Shown: positions 3,650-15,065, counted from the stretch's first letter. The stretch is DNA of 32,000 nucleotides from Vibrio cholerae ATCC 14035 (GCF_000621645.1 NZ_JHXR01000027.1:1-32000); one strand, 5' to 3'. Made by a program: numbers and translations. Notes: generated by a model from the letters alone, not told the origin.

Positions 3650-4519
3650 GTGACGTCCTCTCTTCCCTTGCGACTCGGTTTAACCCTGTGGTCTCACCCT
3701 GCATGGCAGAGTGAGTTTTATGGCAGCGGCACGCAAGCTTCTGAACGCCTTGCGAAATACGCCAGCGTTTTTCACACCGTGGAGGGGAATACCACCTTTT
3801 ACGCGTCGCCCTCGCCCAGTACTGTGCTCAACTGGCGCGCCGCGACTCATGATGACTTTCGCTTCACCTTTAAGCTGCCCAAAAGCATTACCCACCAGCA
3901 TTTACTGCGCGACTGTAAAGAAGAGCTGCTGAGTTTTTTGCGTTTAATGCAGCCCTTGCACGACCGAATTGGCATGTGGACGATTCAGCTGCCCGCCGCT
4001 TTTGGGCCTGAACATCTGGCGCAATTGAAAAACTTTCGAGACTGGTTTCCAGCCGATTTTCCACTGGGCGTGGAGGTGCGTCATTTGGCCTTTTTTGGCA
4101 AAGGCGAAGCGGAAAAAGCGCTCAATCAATGGCTGATTGAGCAAAACATTGATCGCATCATTATGGACAGTCGCCCCGTTTTTTCGGCGCTGCCGAATAC
4201 CGAAGCGGTAATTGATGCGCAGCAGAAAAAACCGAAAGTGCCGGTGCATGCGATTGCCACCGCCAAGCATCCGATGATCCGTTTTATCGGCCATCCTGAG
4301 ATTGAGGCCAACCTACCCTTTTTCGGTGCTTGGCTACATAAACTGCCCGAGTGGATTGCCCAAGGTAAGCAGCCTTATCTAATGATTCATACACCGGATA
4401 ATGATTTCGCGCCTCAGCTGGCGGTGCAACTTTACCAACAATTACAACAGGCTATCGCGCTGCCTGACTTAGCCCCTTTTCCCGTCACACCAGAACAACC
4501 ACAACTGAGCATGTTTTGA
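3650..4519 (+). CDS. DUF72 family protein (YecE-like).
   Basis: 289 aa. The N-terminus (LGLTLWSHPAWQSEFYG) is typical of DUF72/YecE. Its position between aspS and cmoA mirrors the E. coli aspS-yecD-yecE-yecN-cmoA-cmoB neighbourhood. GTG start with AAGGAG at 3634-3639. Confidence 0.75.
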   Translation: MTSSLPLRLGLTLWSHPAWQSEFYGSGTQASERLAKYASVFHTVEGNTTFYASPSPSTVLNWRAATHDDFRFTFKLPKSITHQHLLRDCKEELLSFLRLMQPLHDRIGMWTIQLPAAFGPEHLAQLKNFRDWFPADFPLGVEVRHLAFFGKGEAEKALNQWLIEQNIDRIIMDSRPVFSALPNTEAVIDAQQKKPKVPVHAIATAKHPMIRFIGHPEIEANLPFFGAWLHKLPEWIAQGKQPYLMIHTPDNDFAPQLAVQLYQQLQQAIALPDLAPFPVTPEQPQLSMF

Positions 4520-6468: not shown

Positions 6469-6515
6469 TTGACACAGTTTTAACTCGCTTATTCGGGTAT
6501 CACGTTACCCTTGGT

Positions 6516-6538
6516 AAAGGATGCGCTAAGCATCCTTT
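6516..6538 (+). terminator. Weak hairpin downstream of cmoB. It may act as a partial terminator or an operon boundary.
   Basis: AAAGGATGC / GCATCCTTT 9-bp stem with a 5-nt loop. There is no extended U-tract beyond the three U in the stem. Confidence 0.3.
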
Positions 6539-6587
6539 GCTATAACTTATCTATACAATCACTCATTAGAAAATAATAAGGTCGCAA

Positions 6588-7325
6588 ATGTTTAAGCGAA
6601 TTGCACCCTTTGCCGCATTGAGTTTGCTTTCGGGCTGCGCACTCACCAATGGCGATGAATACCATCAAGCGACGCTCTCCGCGATTCAAAGCTCTGAAGC
6701 CAATATGACCCAAAAAATGACGAACTTAGAATCACAAATGGGTCTGCAGAATGATTATATTGAAAGCCTTGAAAAACAAATTACTGAGCTAAAAACTCAA
6801 GTTAGCCAAATTAAACTGCCCCCCCCCCCTGCCCCGAAACGAGTCTCCACTGCGAAACCGTCTAATGATCAGAACACCGCTATCAGCAAGCCTCGCCATG
6901 ATGTGGTGCTGGGCGAAATTGAGAGCGTCACCATTGATGCGATTAAGCAAACCTTTGATGCTCGTATCGATACGGGTGCCGCCACCTCATCACTGAACGC
7001 CGTCGATATTGAAGAATTCGAACGCAATGGCAAAAACTGGGTGCGTTTCCACCTCGCTGATGAGAAAAACCCTAAAACAGAGGCTAACTGGATTGAAGCG
7101 CCCGTCTTGCGTTATGTGCGTATTCGTCAATCCACCAACGACAATACCGAGCGCCGCGCCGTTGTCGAGCTTTGGGTAAAACTGGGCTCTATTCATGAGA
7201 AAGCGCAGTTTACCCTCGCCGACCGTTCGCAAATGACACATCCCGTGCTGCTTGGCCGCGAGTTTATCCGTGATATCGCCCTGGTCGATGTCAGTCGCAA
7301 ATACATTCAGACCGAACAAAAATAG
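6588..7325 (+). CDS. Lipoprotein with a C-terminal retropepsin-like aspartic protease domain. The family is usually annotated 'putative ATP-dependent zinc protease' (DUF785, RimB-like).
   Basis: Lipobox LLSG-C (Cys17). A heptad-like linker follows, then a PPPPAP hinge, then ARIDTGAATSSLNA carrying the D-T-G-A protease signature (Asp128, nt 6969-6971). The SD TAAGG lies upstream of the ATG. Confidence 0.75.
   Translation: MFKRIAPFAALSLLSGCALTNGDEYHQATLSAIQSSEANMTQKMTNLESQMGLQNDYIESLEKQITELKTQVSQIKLPPPPAPKRVSTAKPSNDQNTAISKPRHDVVLGEIESVTIDAIKQTFDARIDTGAATSSLNAVDIEEFERNGKNWVRFHLADEKNPKTEANWIEAPVLRYVRIRQSTNDNTERRAVVELWVKLGSIHEKAQFTLADRSQMTHPVLLGREFIRDIALVDVSRKYIQTEQK
6819..6829 (+). repeat. Homopolymeric C11 tract inside the lipoprotein-protease gene.
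   Basis: Counted directly: CTG CCC CCC CCC CCT encodes L-P-P-P-P (aa 77-81). Confidence 0.95.
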
Positions 7326-7333
7326 GCGAGACG

Positions 7334-8842
7334 ATGACTTCGAAAATTCCTTTTTATATTTCTGTCTTTCTGCTCTTTGCTACAGGTATCACATTGAGTG
7401 TTTTGCGCCACCAAGATTATGGTGTGCCATGGACCCCCGGCGAAACTCGTCAAGTCTGGGATATTGAAGCGAGGATCGAGTTTGCAGCGCAAGGGAAGGA
7501 GGCCAAAGTTTCCCTTGCCGCACCGCTCACGCAAGAAGGCTATACCCTGATCAACGAAACCGCGTCCTCCCCGGGCTACGGCATTTCTTACCTGAATACC
7601 GAATCAGGTCGCCGTATTGAGTGGTCGATTCGTCAGGCGAGCGGCCCGCAAACCATCTACTACAAAGCGCAATTTCTGGTCGACCCACAAGCCAAAGCAG
7701 TACAAATTCCGCCAACACAACCGATCACAAAACCCGCCTTTGATGGCCCCGAAGAGTCAGCGGCTATCGCCTTGATCGACAGTGCTTCGCAGCGCTCAGC
7801 AGATCACGTTACCTTTGCTCGCGAGCTGATTAAAGGACTCAACGATAGCGAGAGCCAAAACGCCTCTTTGCTGCTGAATAAAATGAGTAAAGTCGATGCC
7901 ACGCAAAAACTGCTCTCTTACGCACTCGTACCCAATAAAGTGGTCGGAGTGATCCAGTTAGAAGATGGTCGCCGCCGTCAGTCGATTCAGCATATGAATG
8001 AAGTGTGGAATGGCAGCGCTTGGATCCTGTTTAATCCAGAAACAGGCACCCAACCAACACATCCGAATCTTCTGGTGTGGGATGAATCCAACGTCTCTCT
8101 ACTCGATGTGGTCGGTGGGCAAAATAGCCAAGTCATGTTCAGTATGATTTCGCAAAAAGTCTCGCCTCAACAAGCCACCGACAGCAAAGTTGAGGCAGAC
8201 GGTTTACTCAATCTCTCAATCCATAGCTTGCCGCTTGAAGAGCAAGCCATGTTCAAGACCATCATGTTGATCCCGATTGGTGCCTTGATCGTGGTGTTTT
8301 TGCGCGTGATTGTCGGACTCAAAACCTCGGGGACTTTCATGCCCGTCTTGATCGCGGTGGCCTTTGTACAAACCCAGCTCACCACGGGTATTGTCGGCTT
8401 TCTGCTGATTGTAGGCACTGGCTTAATCATTCGTAGTTACCTCTCCAAGCTCAATCTCTTACTGGTTGCACGGATTTCAGCCGTGATCATCACCGTGATT
8501 TTGATTATTTCGGTGTTTACTGTGGTGGCGTTTAAAGTCGGTTTAACCGAAGGCTTAACCATCACTTTCTTCCCGATGATTATTCTGTCGTGGACCATTG
8601 AGCGGATGTCCATTCTGTGGGAAGAAGAAGGCGCTAAAGAGGTGCTACTGCAAGGCGGTGGCTCACTGTTTACCGCTATTTTGATCTATCTGGCGATGAC
8701 CAACACGTATGTACAACACTTAACCTTTAATTTCATTGGGTTACAGTTGGTTGTTCTCGCGGCAATCCTACTGTTGGGAACTTACACCGGTTATCGAATT
8801 TCTGAGCTACGTCGCTTCAAGCCTTTGGTGGAGGAGAAGTAA
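7334..8842 (+). CDS. Membrane protein with one N-terminal TM helix, a ~280-aa extracytoplasmic (inactive transglutaminase-like) domain and a C-terminal 7TM bundle.
   Basis: 502 aa. The hydrophobic segment at aa 5-24 and seven hydrophobic segments between aa ~305 and 490 were read from the translation. The architecture and operon context match the family described as 'inactive transglutaminase fused to 7 TM helices'. It starts 8 nt after the stop of the upstream gene. Confidence 0.7.
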   Translation: MTSKIPFYISVFLLFATGITLSVLRHQDYGVPWTPGETRQVWDIEARIEFAAQGKEAKVSLAAPLTQEGYTLINETASSPGYGISYLNTESGRRIEWSIRQASGPQTIYYKAQFLVDPQAKAVQIPPTQPITKPAFDGPEESAAIALIDSASQRSADHVTFARELIKGLNDSESQNASLLLNKMSKVDATQKLLSYALVPNKVVGVIQLEDGRRRQSIQHMNEVWNGSAWILFNPETGTQPTHPNLLVWDESNVSLLDVVGGQNSQVMFSMISQKVSPQQATDSKVEADGLLNLSIHSLPLEEQAMFKTIMLIPIGALIVVFLRVIVGLKTSGTFMPVLIAVAFVQTQLTTGIVGFLLIVGTGLIIRSYLSKLNLLLVARISAVIITVILIISVFTVVAFKVGLTEGLTITFFPMIILSWTIERMSILWEEEGAKEVLLQGGGSLFTAILIYLAMTNTYVQHLTFNFIGLQLVVLAAILLLGTYTGYRISELRRFKPLVEEK

Positions 8843-9831
8843 TGGGGTTCTCCTTTTCGTTCTCGGATTACACCTCCCCTTTTAAGCTACGCCGCAAAGG
8901 TATCATGGGGATGAATAAGCGTAACCACGCTTATATCGGACGTTACAACGATCGTTCCAAGTACCCTTTAGTGGATGACAAGCTCAAAACCAAGCTGATC
9001 GCTCAACGGGCTGGGTGTACGGTTCCAAAGCTCATCGGCGTGATCAGCAATCAAGCCGAAGTGAAACACATCCATGAAATGGTCAAAGACTGGCCGGGCT
9101 TTGTGATTAAGCCTGCGCGCGGCAGCGGTGGGAAAGGCATTTTAGTCGTCACCTCCCATCAAGCCGGTGTGTATACCAAACCCTCAGGTTCGAACATGAA
9201 TAAAGAGGATGTGGAACGCCACATCAGCAATGCCCTCGCCGGACTTTTCTCTCTTGGCGGCAAAAACGATGTAGCCGTGGTCGAAAACTTAATTCAGTTT
9301 GATGACTGTTTTGAGGGGTTCAGCTATGAAGGCGTACCCGATGTGCGGATTATCGTGTTCAAAGGTTATCCGGTCATGGCGATGATGCGCCTCTCCACTT
9401 CCGCTTCGGATGGAAAAGCCAACTTGCACCAAGGTGCGGTCGGCGTGGGAATTGATATTGCCACCGGTAAAGCGGTGCGTGCCGTGCAATTTAATAAACC
9501 CGTTACTCATCACCCCGATACAGACAAAGAGCTGGCCACCTTAGTTGTACCCCACTGGGAAAGACTGCTGACATTAGCAGCCAGCGCTTGGGAGATGACT
9601 GGATTAGGCTATCTCGGAACCGATATGGTACTGGATAAAGAAGAAGGCCCCATGGTGTTAGAACTCAACGCGCGTCCCGGACTCGCGATTCAGATTGCTA
9701 ATGGCGCAGGACTCTTGCCTCGTTTGCAGCACATTGAAAGTTTAGGTTCTTCACTGATCTACCCAACACCCGCCGAGCGTGTAGCGTATGCAGTGCGTAA
9801 GTTTGGGGTTCACTCACCGATAGCGCAGTAA
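8842..9831 (+). CDS. RimK-related ATP-grasp enzyme (alpha-L-glutamate ligase-like protein).
   Basis: 329 aa. ATP-grasp motifs are present: FVIKPARGSGGKGILVV, DVRIIVFKGYPVMAMMRLS and MVLELNARPGL. The start ATG overlaps the upstream stop (TAATG, 8840-8844). The N-terminal KLRRKGIMGMNKRN block is typical of this clade. Confidence 0.8.
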   Translation: MGFSFSFSDYTSPFKLRRKGIMGMNKRNHAYIGRYNDRSKYPLVDDKLKTKLIAQRAGCTVPKLIGVISNQAEVKHIHEMVKDWPGFVIKPARGSGGKGILVVTSHQAGVYTKPSGSNMNKEDVERHISNALAGLFSLGGKNDVAVVENLIQFDDCFEGFSYEGVPDVRIIVFKGYPVMAMMRLSTSASDGKANLHQGAVGVGIDIATGKAVRAVQFNKPVTHHPDTDKELATLVVPHWERLLTLAASAWEMTGLGYLGTDMVLDKEEGPMVLELNARPGLAIQIANGAGLLPRLQHIESLGSSLIYPTPAERVAYAVRKFGVHSPIAQ

Positions 9832-9861: not shown

Positions 9862-9888
9862 AAAAGGCTTCCGAATGGAAGCCTTTTT
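9862..9888. terminator. Bidirectional rho-independent terminator between the ATP-grasp gene and serC.
   Basis: Stem GGCTTCC (9866-9872) / GGAAGCC (9877-9883), loop GAAT. It is flanked by an A-run (9862-9865) and a T-run (9884-9888). Confidence 0.85.
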
Positions 9889-11127: not shown

Positions 11128-12393
11128 TTAGCCTTGTGACATCATCAGCGGCATTAACAACATGACGAGTGGCATGGTTTTTCCGTTCGGGAATACCACA
11201 TTACCCTCTTTGATTTCCGCTTGTAGGGTGTAGCCTTTATCATCTTGAGTCATCATTTCCATCATCATGAGCTGGTCAATCCCTTGTGCAATAAATGGGA
11301 AAGCCGTCACCAACTGGTTGGAAATATACGTTTTAGTCTGCCCGGTCAGCGCTGGGATCACCGCCATCGGATCTTGCAGTAGATTTTCCGTCCCTTCAGG
11401 CACATTCAGTCGCCAATTCGATGCAAAATCACCACCAGAAATATTGGCCGAGAAGTTATCCACTGAAACGAAGAACCCTTTACTGAACAGTGCTTCCACT
11501 TGTGGCAAGATCTGCTCAACATCCTGCTCGGTCATCTCTGGCGCACCTTGATAAAGTTTAGACAGCGCTTTGGTGGCCGTGGTATCCAAGTCCCCCAACG
11601 TGAAATCTAAAGCGAACTCTTTAAACTCGCCGCCGCTGTATTTGGCATCGGCAATCTTCATTTTGTGAGCCGTGGTAAAACGAGTCTGTGTGGTATCCAA
11701 CCCTGAAGTGAAATGGTAAGTAAAACCACCCATATCAAACTCCGTTTGTCCCTCTTGGTTGACACTCAGTTTATCCAGCTTGAAATTCTGTGCGCCTAGC
11801 CACAAACCATCACTCTCTTTACCTTGACCGTCACCGGTGATCTGGCTGAGTACCATCTGCGCTTGGTTTTCAAAATCCAAAATGATCTTTGGTACGTTCA
11901 GTTGGAACGTCATTTCACCCAATGTCGTTAAAGAACCGCTCATTTGCGCCGGTTCAATGGTCACTGCAACAGGCTCTTCACCTTGGAATACGTAGTTCCA
12001 CTGTTCCAGCTTCACCGTGTAATCGGTGTTACCGTTTAACTTGGTATTCGAAAGAATCTGCAGTGGAAACTCAGGGAATTGCGGCAATGTTGATACCGCT
12101 GACACCCCCATCAGGCCATGAGTCAGTGTACTGTCGACTAAAATTTCGGTCGGAATACCTTCTGCTTCTAACTGCGCCACAATCGTCGGGTCTGTGATTT
12201 TGTAACGCGTCTGCATTTGTGATGACAGATAACCGCGCTGATAGTTAACCAGTTCAGCCTTGGTTGATGAGCTTTCAAAATTGTTGAGGCCATCTTTGAT
12301 CGCAGATTCACCGATTTGGCCCACCGCGAGTGGCCAACACAAACCTAGCGCAACAGCCCCACCCACTGCACCGATCATTTTTATTGATTTCAT
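11128..12393 (-). CDS. YdgA-like DUF945 family protein (N-terminal signal or anchor, extracytoplasmic).
   Basis: 421 aa. The N-terminal hydrophobic segment is MIGAVGGAVALGLCWPLAVGQ, and the remainder is a low-complexity beta-rich region resembling YdgA/DUF945 proteins. The family assignment is from recognition only. Confidence 0.55.
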   Translation of the reverse strand: MKSIKMIGAVGGAVALGLCWPLAVGQIGESAIKDGLNNFESSSTKAELVNYQRGYLSSQMQTRYKITDPTIVAQLEAEGIPTEILVDSTLTHGLMGVSAVSTLPQFPEFPLQILSNTKLNGNTDYTVKLEQWNYVFQGEEPVAVTIEPAQMSGSLTTLGEMTFQLNVPKIILDFENQAQMVLSQITGDGQGKESDGLWLGAQNFKLDKLSVNQEGQTEFDMGGFTYHFTSGLDTTQTRFTTAHKMKIADAKYSGGEFKEFALDFTLGDLDTTATKALSKLYQGAPEMTEQDVEQILPQVEALFSKGFFVSVDNFSANISGGDFASNWRLNVPEGTENLLQDPMAVIPALTGQTKTYISNQLVTAFPFIAQGIDQLMMMEMMTQDDKGYTLQAEIKEGNVVFPNGKTMPLVMLLMPLMMSQG

Positions 12394-12615: not shown

Positions 12616-14571
12616 GTGAATCGCTACGCCCTGCTCATTTTAGATAACAATCCGTTCAGTATTGAACAATGGCGTCAAGAACTGTCTGGTTTTGCCAGTA
12701 AATTCGACCTATGCAGCGCTGAATCTATTGATGAAGCTCAGCAGTGGCTTGAATTTATTGAACAACGTGAACAGATCGCCGCGTTAGTTATCGCCAGTCA
12801 TCACGAAGCGCTCAATGGTGCGGATTTTTTGATTCGATTAGATAAAGTGGCGCACACCAAACACGCTCGCAAAGTTCTGGTGAGTGGTGGACAAGATATC
12901 CAAGCCATTCTGAGCGCGGTCAACGAAGGTCGCTTAGACTACTGCTTGACTAAACCACTGCAAGATAACGTGCTACGCAAAACGGCTTTACAAGAACTGA
13001 CCTCCTTTGTACTTGAACACGATAAAGACAATATCTTGAGCTACAGCACGGTGTTGGATCAGCAGCGTCTGTTACGCGCGCACATCGATAATAAAATGCG
13101 CAGCTACCGTGAAGGATTCATCACGGATTATCACCGCTTATCCGATAGTGAATTAGCCGAAAAAGTGATTGGTGCGCTGTACCAGTTTTTTGATGAGAAA
13201 GACGAGACTCAAGCGTGCCGAACCTATTCCGCGCAGCATTTACTGACCGAAGAGGGCGAGCCTAACCGTTTCTTATGGTTTATCACCGAAGGCGAAGTGG
13301 CTTTATATAAGCGAGACGATCTTGGCCAACAGCGTGAAGTGGTACGCCATAAAAAAGGCAATATTATCGGCGGTATGTCATTTGTGACTGGCGAACCCTC
13401 TTTTTCGACTGCGATCACCCTAACCCAGACTGAAGTGATAAAACTTGATCGTGACGTGTTCGCCAAAGTCATGCACAACGACACCAGTCTACTGCCTCTG
13501 TTTACCAACTTACTTCTGCGCCATTTTAATCGTCGATTGCAACGCAGTATTACCACGAAACTTGAACTGCAAAAAACGTTGGAGTCTTTAGAGTCTGCCC
13601 ATCAACAATTGATGGAGCGTGAAAAAATGGCGATGTTAGGACAACTGGTGGCAGGCGTTGCCCACGAGTTGAATAATCCGGTCGCTGCCATTTTGCGCGG
13701 TACTGAAACCTTATCCAGCCATATTGGACATTTGATTGAGGGTGAAGAGCGAGCGCCAACCGAGCAATTAGGTGCGCAACTATTGCAAAAAGCCATGCAG
13801 GCTAAGCCGATCTCCACTTCCGAAGAGCGTCACAAAGCCAAACAGTTAGAAGAGCTTATCCATCACCGTTTAATCGCCAAGAAAATGGTCAAATTAGGCT
13901 TGGATGACGATGAGGCCATGATCCAACTCGCCAAAAGCCGACCGGAAATAGCGCAAAAACAACTTGAACAGCTGGAAAGCTATCACCTCACCGGCAGTAC
14001 TCTGCGTTCAATCCAAGTCTGTGCACAGCGGATTGCTGACATGGTGAAAAGCCTTAAAGGCTATGCACGTCCTGACGATGAAACTTATCGACTCTCCGAT
14101 ATTCATGAAGGGATAGAAGATACCTTGGTCATTTTTGAAAATCGCCTAAAACGGCATAGTGTCGAAAAAGAGTACGCACAATTACCATTAATCTATTGTT
14201 TGCCAATTGCGCTACAGCAAGTGTGGACTAATCTCATCTCAAATGCGATTGACGCTTTTCCTGAACATGGCGTATTGCGTATTGAAACCGAGCAGCAACG
14301 TCGTCAAGATATCGACTACGCCGTGATTCGCTTCACCGACAATGGTTGTGGCATTCCACAAGCGTTACAGCAGAAGATTTTTGCCCTCAACTACACTACC
14401 AAACGAGAAGGTAACTTTGGTCTTGGGATTGGCCTATCTGTCTGTCAACAGATCATTATGCAACATCAAGGTTGGATTGATGTCGACTCCCAACCTAACC
14501 ACTACACCACCATGACGGTGTGGCTGCCTTTAATGGTATCCGCACCCACCTTGGCAAGGAGCAAGCCATGA
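12616..14571 (+). CDS. Soluble multidomain histidine kinase: N-terminal pseudo-receiver, cNMP-binding-like domain, then HisKA and HATPase_c.
   Basis: 651 aa with no hydrophobic TM segments. The REC-like fold at aa 1-125 has Ser61 where the phospho-acceptor Asp is expected. The cNMP-like beta-barrel spans about aa 205-310 (FLWFITEGEVALYK...GGMSFVTGEPSFSTA). The kinase core has the H-box VAHELNNP, N-box NLISNAIDA, G1 DNGCGIP and G2 GLGIGLS. GTG start at 12616. Confidence 0.85.
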   Translation: MNRYALLILDNNPFSIEQWRQELSGFASKFDLCSAESIDEAQQWLEFIEQREQIAALVIASHHEALNGADFLIRLDKVAHTKHARKVLVSGGQDIQAILSAVNEGRLDYCLTKPLQDNVLRKTALQELTSFVLEHDKDNILSYSTVLDQQRLLRAHIDNKMRSYREGFITDYHRLSDSELAEKVIGALYQFFDEKDETQACRTYSAQHLLTEEGEPNRFLWFITEGEVALYKRDDLGQQREVVRHKKGNIIGGMSFVTGEPSFSTAITLTQTEVIKLDRDVFAKVMHNDTSLLPLFTNLLLRHFNRRLQRSITTKLELQKTLESLESAHQQLMEREKMAMLGQLVAGVAHELNNPVAAILRGTETLSSHIGHLIEGEERAPTEQLGAQLLQKAMQAKPISTSEERHKAKQLEELIHHRLIAKKMVKLGLDDDEAMIQLAKSRPEIAQKQLEQLESYHLTGSTLRSIQVCAQRIADMVKSLKGYARPDDETYRLSDIHEGIEDTLVIFENRLKRHSVEKEYAQLPLIYCLPIALQQVWTNLISNAIDAFPEHGVLRIETEQQRRQDIDYAVIRFTDNGCGIPQALQQKIFALNYTTKREGNFGLGIGLSVCQQIIMQHQGWIDVDSQPNHYTTMTVWLPLMVSAPTLARSKP

Positions 14572-15065
14572 ACAAATTTTTGATTTTATGTGTGGATGAC
14601 GAACGAGAAGTGCTCGACAGTGTGGTGCAAGATCTCGACTGTTTTGAAGAGCATTTCATTATTGAAGCGGCCGAATCGGTTGCGGAAGCGAAATCCGTGA
14701 TTGAGGATTATCGCCAAGAAGCGATCCCCCTCGCCCTGATCCTGTGTGATCACATCATGCCGGAGCAGACTGGCATTCAATTTCTTATTGAGCTCAACCA
14801 AGAAGCCGATACCACCCGCACACGCAAGATGTTACTCACAGGCCAAGCGGGGCTGGAAGATACCGTACAAGCCGTTAACCATGCCAGTTTACACTTTTAC
14901 ATCGCTAAGCCTTGGCATGGAGAACAACTGCGCCAAGCCGTAAAAGAGCAATTGACTCATTACGTGATTGAGAACGAAGAGGACTTAATGCCTTGGATTC
15001 AAATTCTCGATGCAGAAAAAATTCTAAATGCGATCGCCGCTAAAAGAATGAGCTTTGGCGAATAG
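14568..15065 (+). CDS. Stand-alone receiver-domain response regulator with a ~40-aa C-terminal tail and no DNA-binding domain.
   Basis: 165 aa from the ATG at 14568, which overlaps the kinase stop (ATGA, 14568-14571). The canonical REC residues are present: DD (VDDE), the phospho-acceptor Asp in LILCDHIMP, T in LLTG and K in AKPW. Confidence 0.85.
   Translation: MNKFLILCVDDEREVLDSVVQDLDCFEEHFIIEAAESVAEAKSVIEDYRQEAIPLALILCDHIMPEQTGIQFLIELNQEADTTRTRKMLLTGQAGLEDTVQAVNHASLHFYIAKPWHGEQLRQAVKEQLTHYVIENEEDLMPWIQILDAEKILNAIAAKRMSFGE

Follow-up and report, generated by a model that had tools for sequence, protein, structure and literature searches.

The rloABC operon of Vibrio cholerae: a predicted stalked lipoprotein protease beside an invariant RloB-RloC pair

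In a 32,000-nucleotide stretch of DNA from Vibrio cholerae ATCC 14035 (GCF_000621645.1, NZ_JHXR01000027.1:1-32000; hereafter the window), positions 6588-9831 carry three genes on the + strand that almost certainly are VC1162-VC1161-VC1160, the rloABC operon of V. cholerae. We base this assignment on the 99% identity of the second gene product to the V. cholerae 'inactive transglutaminase family protein' (older name 'gonadoliberin III'), on matching annotations and co-regulation, and on the statement by Lormand et al. (mBio 2025, PMC12239564), who explicitly call the V. cholerae genes orthologues of rloABC. The system is thus already known, its name and a partial genetic characterisation in Pseudomonas both dating from 2025, and what interest remains lies in the product of RloC and in the lipoprotein-stalk class to which this locus belongs. 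An initial annotation of this DNA had presented the cassette as uncharacterised, with no substrate, product or phenotype shown. This is out of date, since phenotypes, structures and an in vitro substrate, and with them an experimental function for direct orthologues, have been published (PMC12239564). The exact protein encoded by the first gene is present on at least 1000 V. cholerae contigs.

The three genes and their published orthologues

Calling of open reading frames (ORFs) gave three ORFs on the + strand, and the layout of the initial annotation, with an 8-nucleotide gap at the first junction and a TAATG overlap at the second, was confirmed base for base. The features of the operon are:

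6588-7325, + strand: rloA (VC1162), lipoprotein retropepsin-like aspartic protease, 245 amino acids (Zn_protease PF05618, 4e-53)
6588-6638, + strand: signal peptide with lipobox LSG-C17 and Ala at +2, by sequence inspection
6666-6812, + strand: coiled-coil-like heptad stalk, residues 27-75 (49 residues in continuous register), by heptad score against shuffles
6819-6829, + strand: run of 11 C encoding a PPPP linker, length-polymorphic in V. cholerae
6906-7316, + strand: retropepsin-like protease domain, residues 107-243 (PF05618), with catalytic Asp128 in DTGA
7326-7333, + strand: gap between rloA and rloB, 8 nucleotides, GCGAGACG
7334-8842, + strand: rloB (VC1161), 502 amino acids, with a first transmembrane segment (TM1), a periplasmic inactive transglutaminase-like domain and a polytopic membrane domain (Pfam, NCBIfam, AlphaFold)
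7421-8203, + strand: predicted periplasmic beta-sandwich and transglutaminase-like pseudo-enzyme domain of RloB, about residues 30-290 (Foldseek)
8234-8779, + strand: conserved polytopic '7TM' membrane domain of RloB, about residues 301-482 (family conservation)
8798-8833, + strand: conserved basic amphipathic C-terminal helix of RloB, residues 489-500 (family motif GRYTGYRLxELxRF at ~482-495)
8840-8844, + strand: overlap of rloB and rloC, TAATG, in which the TAA of rloB and the ATG of rloC have one A in common
8842-9831, + strand: rloC (VC1160), cytoplasmic ATP-grasp ligase, 329 amino acids (ATPgrasp_ST PF14397, 5e-101)

In V. cholerae the three genes are regulated together. RNA sequencing of a vxrB deletion (Cheng et al. 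2015, supplement) showed VC1160 down 3.3-fold and VC1161 and VC1162 each down 2.3-fold, under the labels 'glutathione synthase/glutaminyl transferase', 'gonadoliberin III-related protein' and 'peptidase aspartic lipoprotein', respectively. VC1159, VC1163 and VC1164 are not in this VxrB-dependent list, and a separate study lists VC1160-1162 as a single operon.

In Pseudomonas aeruginosa the operon, from which the rloABC name comes, has the same architecture (rloA-rloB-rloC, PA14_41690/41710/41730). In crystal structures the RloA proteins were retropepsin-like dimers whose substrate channel is basic; in vitro they cleave runs of at least 8 Glu, interrupting residues block the cleavage, and exchange of a single channel residue (R114A or R137A) abolishes both cleavage and complementation. 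A triple rloA1-3 deletion does not grow on salt-free lysogeny broth and has biofilm, beta-lactam and cell-shape defects, and its osmotic defect is fully rescued by deletion of rloB or rloC. As P. aeruginosa has no genome-encoded periplasmic protein with polyglutamate (polyGlu), the authors suggested that the substrate is free polyGlu or arises by post-translational polyglutamylation, and they left the biochemistry of RloB and RloC open. RloA also cleaves RimB substrates in vitro, and a rimB deletion showed no genetic interaction with the rloA mutants (all PMC12239564). No later paper found in the literature searched resolves the chemistry of RloB and RloC; a 2025 paper cites the Iyer/Aravind survey of 2009 for this domain architecture.

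A stalked RloA and an invariant RloB-RloC core

The first gene had initially been assigned to the Zn_protease/DUF785-type, RimB-related family, and this holds, both by the PF05618 match and by the presence of RimB among the NCBIfam matches. The best NCBIfam models were RloA3, RloA2 and RloA1 ('retropepsin-like aspartic peptidase') and RimB, all below their cutoffs (RloA1/2/3 models: 114, 92 and 85 bits vs 210, 250 and 280; RimB: 73 bits vs 200). For both RloA and RloB, the NCBIfam models are of the 'exception' or equivalog kind, narrow in scope and based on Pseudomonas. Homology to RloA was further visible in matches to the PDB structures 9g58 (7e-19) and 9g59 (2e-16), and together with PF05618, the signal peptide and the lipobox this identifies an exported DTG(A) retropepsin-like protease of the kind found in rloABC. 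The lipobox Cys17, the heptad-like linker and the DTGA motif noted in the initial annotation were all found again: the GAT codon of Asp128 lies at 6969-6971 within DTGA, and D128, G130 and A131 are conserved among orthologues. Three basic residues, R126, R190 and R213, are conserved to 97-100% in 77 sequences and correspond to the polyGlu-coordinating K46, R114 and R137 of P. aeruginosa RloA, with the same spacing of 23 residues between R190 and R213 as between R114 and R137.

Alignment to the Pseudomonas RloA1 model begins at model position 19 (of 178) and window residue 100, and therefore about 85 mature N-terminal residues are without a Pseudomonas counterpart. This extra N-terminus is made up of the lipidated Cys17 followed by Ala at +2, the heptad segment 27-75 and the Pro-rich linker. 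In the heptad segment 86% of the a/d positions are hydrophobic vs 3% of the others, and the heptad score of 5.8 is significant when compared to 200 shuffles (3.0 +/- 0.5, maximum 4.6). The architecture of lipobox and stalk is present in effectively all 76 close orthologues, as the lipobox is strict in 73 of them with near-lipobox sites in the remaining 3, Asp is never found at +2, and the stalk has a median length of 92 amino acids (74 orthologues). Following the Lol +2 rule of E. coli, RloA is predicted to be anchored in the outer membrane. The words 'lipoprotein', 'lipobox' and 'coiled' are not mentioned anywhere in PMC12239564.

The stalked proteases also differ in their cysteines. The lipidated C17 is the sole Cys of the window RloA, and none of the 77 stalked orthologues has a Cys in the protease domain (0/77), so the disulfide pair of the Pseudomonas enzyme has no counterpart here; a Cys pair does occur in the stalk-less RloA of three distant loci (L081, L082 and L088). 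The disulfide stated to be 'conserved in periplasmic orthologs' (PMC12239564) is therefore specific to the stalk-less class.

The C11 tract that encodes the PPPP linker is missing from other Vibrio species and varies among V. cholerae records. A PPP form (244 amino acids) is found on 58 contigs, and a 170-amino-acid 'partial' record starts at the C tract with five Pro. Slipped-strand variation may account for these differences, as may sequencing error in the homopolymer.

RloB matched the inactive transglutaminase and 7TM families to which the initial annotation had assigned it (Transglut_i_TM PF14400, 1e-54; 7TM_transglut PF14402, 2e-107). The NCBIfam RloB model NF052267 ('osmotic stress tolerance membrane protein RloB') aligned colinearly over residues 9-500 (1.9e-105), at a score below its cutoff (353 bits vs 900), and 90/90 diverse family members match only this RloB model. 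In the AlphaFold model (predicted local distance difference test, pLDDT, 92.4; predicted TM-score, pTM, 0.85) TM1 is followed by an external domain of ~250 amino acids, beta-rich and helical, and by a helical membrane bundle. Foldseek matched the external domain to 3isr, a putative cysteine protease (E 3e-9), and then to 3kd4 and TG2, and TM1 together with the positive-inside rule would place the domain in the periplasm. The Cys-His-Asp catalytic triad of an active transglutaminase or papain-like cysteine peptidase is lacking: the entire protein is free of Cys, and neither Cys nor His is conserved in the external domain across 90 family sequences; because of this we consider the domain truly inactive. 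With PF14400, PF14402 and an inactive periplasmic domain, the second gene product corresponds to the RloB of rloABC.

The conservation of RloB is concentrated on the other side of the protein. Mean conservation is 0.61 in the membrane domain vs 0.38 in the periplasmic domain, and all invariant residues fall in the membrane half (P314, G328, G333, T334, F335, L339, R367, E423, R424 and E431) or in the tail after it (Y484, G486 and F495), none of them in the external domain. Such a placement of the invariant residues, the charged R367, E423, R424 and E431 among them, is typical of a transporter or an enzyme rather than of a passive anchor. When modelled alone the 7TM domain had a pLDDT of 95.7, and the search of the PDB with this domain gave no significant match (best E 1.7; best TM-score 0.44, to RnfA/NqrD). 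A solved structural relative of the 7TM domain was thus sought in vain, as the full-length search returned only transglutaminase-like matches; the weak structural neighbours of the domain include the flippases LtaA, WzxE and MurJ, all at E>1 and none significant.

After the membrane domain, the C-terminal helix has a net charge of +3, equal to the family median (+3). Such a basic helix fits the cytoplasmic side of the membrane and is a candidate docking site for RloC. Two further ideas about RloB sequence motifs were given up. The C-terminal '...VEEK' as a RimK-type Glu-Glu acceptor did not hold, as the last residues are unconserved (the final six have on average 1.0 acidic residue and the terminal residue is variable), and a motif 'F-[I/L]-G' vs 'F-P-E' as a marker of the stalked class was dropped because one distant locus (L083) combines a stalk with P-E.

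For RloC the assignment to the RimK-related 'alpha-L-glutamate ligase-like' clade was upheld by TIGR02291 (552 bits vs a cutoff of 314), whereas a RimK-type ATP-grasp with an RLAN-like N-domain, also expected in the initial annotation, was not what Pfam returned: at E<=0.01 no RLAN domain was detected, there was no Rimk_N match either, and ATPgrasp_ST was the best model with RimK as a weak, partial match. The RimK models TIGR00768 (52 bits vs 143) and PRK10446 (21 vs 331) stayed below their cutoffs. No transmembrane segment or signal peptide was found in the protein, which with TIGR02291 and the catalytic residues gives the cytoplasmic ATP-grasp ligase of a RimK-related clade that is RloC in rloABC. 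As K90, GSGGKG, E148, D261, E274, N276 and R278 are invariant in 77 sequences, RloC, unlike the RloB domain, appears catalytically intact and is by its sequence an active ATP-grasp enzyme. Its nearest PDB relatives in a profile search were four RimK entries (1e-5 to 8e-5), the tubulin polyglutamylase TTLL7 and cyanophycin synthetase, all of them distant and all Glu/Asp-polymerising (amino-acid-polymerising) ligases.

The RloB family comprises 1,794 clusters at 50% identity (E<=0.001) with members of ~500-530 amino acids. In a genome scan we recovered 80 loci, distributed over Vibrionaceae, Aeromonas, Zobellella/Oceanimonas, Halomonadaceae, Cellvibrionaceae, Methylophaga, Shewanella, Psychromonas, the Alteromonas group and a few metagenome-assembled genomes. 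Co-occurrence and gene order, which the initial annotation had proposed as a check, were conserved: the order A-B-C on one strand was seen in 79/80 loci, the exception being cut by a contig end. The B-C junction lies between -17 and +8 nucleotides in all 76 loci that could be analysed for junctions, and the A-B gap ranges from -4 to 108 nucleotides. Gene order, junction spacing and co-regulation together describe a co-oriented A-B-C operon as in rloABC. Identity to the window proteins decreases from RloC (53-88%) over RloB (51-84%) to RloA (32-82%).

We also examined eight more distant RloB representatives (31-45% identity), and B-C adjacency was kept in 8/8 of these and thereby in 88/88 loci overall. 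The protease partner varied: in L081, L082 and L088 it is stalk-less, with a plain signal peptide and two paired Cys near residues 120 and 167, in L084 a plain signal peptide without Cys, in L083 it is a stalked lipoprotein, in L087 a fragment, and in L085 it is absent. Since B-C adjacency is constant while the protease varies, RloB-RloC is the invariant core of the system and RloA a modular accessory.

Two of the distant loci deserve a description of their own. The L085 contig (1-4348) carries rloB-rloC with no adjacent protease gene and a cold-shock-domain gene upstream, and no DTGA motif was found in any forward reading frame of its 4.3 kb, which shows that the B-C pair is able to stand alone. 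On the metagenome-assembled contig L082 (66-5479) one strand carries rimK (Rimk_N and RimK), an AstE/AspA-family hydrolase gene, a RimB-like gene without signal peptide, a RloA-like gene with signal peptide and Cys pair, rloB and rloC, with several overlapping gene ends. Here a cytoplasmic and an envelope polyGlu system apparently share one operon, and the cluster fits the proposed evolutionary link between rim and rlo loci.

When compared to rloABC of P. aeruginosa/fluorescens (PA1768-PA1766), the window cassette has the same three families in the same order on one strand, that is a DTGA protease of the retropepsin-like type that is exported and keeps the basic channel residues, an inactive transglutaminase-like RloB with a 7TM domain, and an ATP-grasp RloC of the TIGR02291 type. 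The differences are found mainly in RloA, which in the window is a lipoprotein with a ~90-amino-acid coiled-coil stalk, a Pro-rich linker and a protease domain without Cys, whereas Pseudomonas RloA carries a disulfide, lacks a stalk and is exported by a plain type-I signal peptide (the annotation of PA1768 gives a type I export signal). In addition, the window proteins score under the narrow NCBI cutoffs for RloA and RloB, and the V. cholerae operon is regulated by VxrAB.

The NCBI RloA and RloB models are too narrow for renaming the Vibrio proteins, and legacy names are still in use: 'ATP-dependent zinc protease' and, in one record, 'RimK/LysX family protein' for the first gene, 'gonadoliberin III' for the second and 'glutathione synthase/glutaminyl transferase' for the third.

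A possible route from ligase to protease

The initial annotation had pointed to a topological puzzle, a cytoplasmic ligase set against a protease and a transglutaminase-like domain that face the periplasm, and this puzzle is real. We propose a pathway of ligase, membrane conduit and protease, to which we give about an even chance of being correct. RloC would polymerise L-glutamate to a chain of the poly-alpha-glutamate type, either free or bound to a carrier. RloB, which would be made in step with RloC, probably docks it through a conserved cytoplasmic face, and the polytopic domain of RloB would deliver the product to the periplasmic side, where the dead transglutaminase-like domain may handle it. 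The polymer would then be trimmed by RloA, as a dimeric retropepsin-like endopeptidase with a basic channel for at least 8 Glu, and if trimming fails, the product of RloB and RloC would accumulate in the envelope and become toxic, chiefly at low osmolarity. RloA of the Vibrio type would not be free in the periplasm, being a lipoprotein on a ~45-residue coiled-coil stalk and Pro-rich linker with predicted sorting to the outer membrane; the stalk may hold the protease ready as a dimer and keep it within the periplasm. Cleavage of polyGlu by RloA, and the requirement of both RloB and RloC for the loss-of-protease phenotype, are shown in Pseudomonas, and from these we infer the other steps.

A similar logic is known from Gram-positive bacteria, where poly-gamma-glutamate is handled by PgsBCA/CapBCA and PgdS/CapD: a cytoplasmic ATP-dependent amide ligase is combined with export-coupled membrane parts and an extracytoplasmic glutamyl hydrolase that sets the length. 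PgdS has a papain/transglutaminase-like (NlpC/P60) fold, and the dead external domain of RloB may by analogy be viewed as a transglutaminase-like version of it. The families are, however, unrelated (a Mur-ligase-type PgsB vs an ATP-grasp enzyme), the linkage is gamma whereas it is presumed to be alpha in rlo, and no homology to PgsBCA/CapBCA was detected in any of our searches, none of which was aimed at these proteins.

Several observations weigh against the proposed pathway. The 7TM domain resembles no solved transporter, so export is pure inference, and the relation of RloC to RimK is distant (E about 1e-5, partial match), with a best Pfam family, ATPgrasp_ST, that is named for its association with sugar transfer. 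Electrostatic capture of polyGlu by the periplasmic domain of RloB is unsupported, since this domain is acidic or neutral (net charge -7 in the window, family median -2). Outer-membrane sorting of RloA depends on the +2 rule of E. coli. In Pseudomonas, mutation of rloB or of rloC alone already gives phenotypes (PMC12239564), and the product of RloB and RloC is therefore not merely toxic waste. In the literature, polyGlu or any other RloC product has not been detected in any organism, the activity of RloC has never been assayed, and no phenotype is reported for the V. cholerae rloABC genes themselves.

A sharper version of the pathway, which we put forward tentatively and regard as somewhat doubtful, is that RloC and RloB form a synthesis-coupled exporter of non-ribosomal poly-alpha-L-glutamate into the periplasm. 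The polymer would be a tunable, trapped polyanion, comparable by analogy to the anionic osmoregulated periplasmic glucans, and RloA would be its release valve. Mid-chain cuts of runs of at least 8 Glu would give ~4-mers near the size limit of porins that could leave the periplasm, and cells lacking the protease would keep the polyanion and burst when the medium is low in salt. In operons of the Vibrio type the valve would hang from the outer membrane on its dimerising coiled-coil stalk.

Alternatively, RloB may be a transmembrane sensor or regulator with no export involved, an option already raised in the initial annotation. The pseudo-transglutaminase domain would sense an envelope cue and allosterically activate RloC, which would modify a target in the cytoplasm just as RimK does with ribosomal protein S6, and the cue or ligand in the periplasm would be under the control of RloA. 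Ligand sensing is a frequent role of pseudo-enzyme domains, the 7TM domain is unlike any known transporter and the operon belongs to a two-component envelope-damage regulon; moreover, with RloB as an obligate activator an rloB deletion would also end the output of RloC, which fits the epistasis in Pseudomonas. We nevertheless find this alternative unlikely. A ligand sensor should show the reverse of the conservation pattern of RloB, whose periplasmic domain is the least conserved part and whose invariant polar and charged residues are in the membrane. Also, RloA needs its polyGlu-coordinating residues in vivo, yet P. aeruginosa encodes no periplasmic polyGlu protein, and therefore ligase-made polyGlu must reach the periplasm somehow.

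The phenotypes of the Pseudomonas mutants, i.e. altered cell shape, beta-lactam-specific sensitivity and hypo-osmotic lysis, resemble those of cell-wall defects, and the V. cholerae operon is controlled by VxrAB, a cell-wall-damage response. In this reading RloC would attach Glu, or a different amino acid, to a precursor of peptidoglycan, to a lipid-linked intermediate or to a glycan, with RloB flipping or presenting the product and RloA removing the modification or regulating peptidoglycan enzymes. The name of the best Pfam family of RloC ('sugar-transfer associated ATP-grasp'), the lipid-linked-substrate flippases among the weak neighbours of the 7TM domain, and the over-production of membrane vesicles by a Shewanella rloB transposon mutant point in the same direction. 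On the other hand, the flippase similarities are all at E>1, no glycosyltransferase or Mur-type gene was linked to the operon in the 88 loci examined, and no known peptidoglycan or lipid-linked structure has the run of at least 8 consecutive, uninterrupted Glu that RloA requires. Taken together, a modification of the cell wall appears quite improbable.

RimK synthesises poly-alpha-L-Glu, and RimB trims the polymer and stimulates its synthesis. Like rlo, the RimK/RimB(/RimA) system for polyglutamylation of S6 thus combines a glutamate ligase of the ATP-grasp type and a retropepsin-like endopeptidase for polyGlu, but it is wholly cytoplasmic with no membrane protein, and RimK has the Rimk_N domain that RloC lacks. 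The framing of the initial annotation, an uncharacterised peptide-tailing cassette without known phenotype and possibly a periplasmic version of RimABK ribosome modification, has in its favour the homology of protease and ligase to RimB and RimK and the single cluster of rimK, rimB and rloABC in L082, and is still highly improbable, as phenotypes, structures and substrate are published, the RimK and RimB model cutoffs are missed, rim and rlo show no genetic interaction, and an RloA exported as a lipoprotein cannot reach the ribosomes.

Surroundings of the operon and its place in envelope biology

As described initially, the operon lies between cmoAB and serC: cmoA and cmoB are found upstream, and serC is convergent with and downstream of rloC. 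It is flanked by two hairpins:

6512-6524/6530-6542, + strand: 13-bp hairpin between cmoB and rloA (folding free energy, dG, -19.7 kcal/mol; z -5.8)
9862-9888, both strands: bidirectional intrinsic terminator between the convergent rloC and serC (stem 9862-9872/9877-9887, 11 bp)

The hairpin upstream and the strong bidirectional terminator downstream, both reported in the initial annotation, are real as judged by dG and z. The upstream hairpin (6512-6542) aligns with GGATGC...GCATCC(T)6 terminators, which have a canonical T-tract, in other Vibrio loci with cmoB upstream, and the simplest reading is that it most likely is the terminator of cmoB. The downstream hairpin folds with a dG of -18.0 kcal/mol (z -4.6) on the + strand and of -18.4 kcal/mol (z -3.9) on the - strand and lies between an A-tract and a T-tract, and the consensus terminator scanner did not list it because the A-tract pairs with the T-tract. 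The two hairpins, together with a VxrB-dependent list that has VC1160-1162 without the flanking genes, bear out the discrete operon of the initial annotation.

Between the stop codon of cmoB, which it follows directly, and the terminator-like hairpin, TTGACACAGTTTTAAC at 6469-6484 matches the published Vxr box TTGACAAAA-N2-TTGAC at 11/14 positions. Only the TTGACA half of this match is conserved, in Vibrio loci with cmoB upstream, and as the window has 5 such matches vs 5.5 expected by chance, we do not claim direct binding of VxrB. We looked for a Glu-rich precursor-peptide ORF or an RNA element adjoining the operon and found none.

Elsewhere in the window, a DUF72 / PRK10302-like protein is encoded just upstream of cmoA (3650-4519, + strand). 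On the - strand, 11128-12393 encodes a 421-amino-acid DUF945 protein (3.9e-44) with an N-terminal hydrophobic segment and without an NCBIfam name; its gene lies between serC and a histidine-kinase/response-regulator pair (12616-15065).

The cassette is a member of a widespread envelope system of gammaproteobacteria. Pseudomonas that has lost the protease arm dies in low-salt medium, and resistance to beta-lactams, biofilms and the shape of the cells are likewise influenced by the system. In V. cholerae, rloABC belongs to the VxrAB regulon for cell-wall damage, which drives tolerance to beta-lactams and colonisation of the gut. Central to the chemistry are the nature of the RloC product and the way in which it crosses the membrane through a fold without a solved relative. 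Our results make two modest additions, the lipoprotein-stalk variant of RloA and the invariant RloB-RloC core. If RloC and RloB do form an exporter of poly-alpha-L-glutamate with RloA as its valve, the stalked protease, which possibly is single-copy in V. cholerae, could make this organism the cleanest model in which to find the product.

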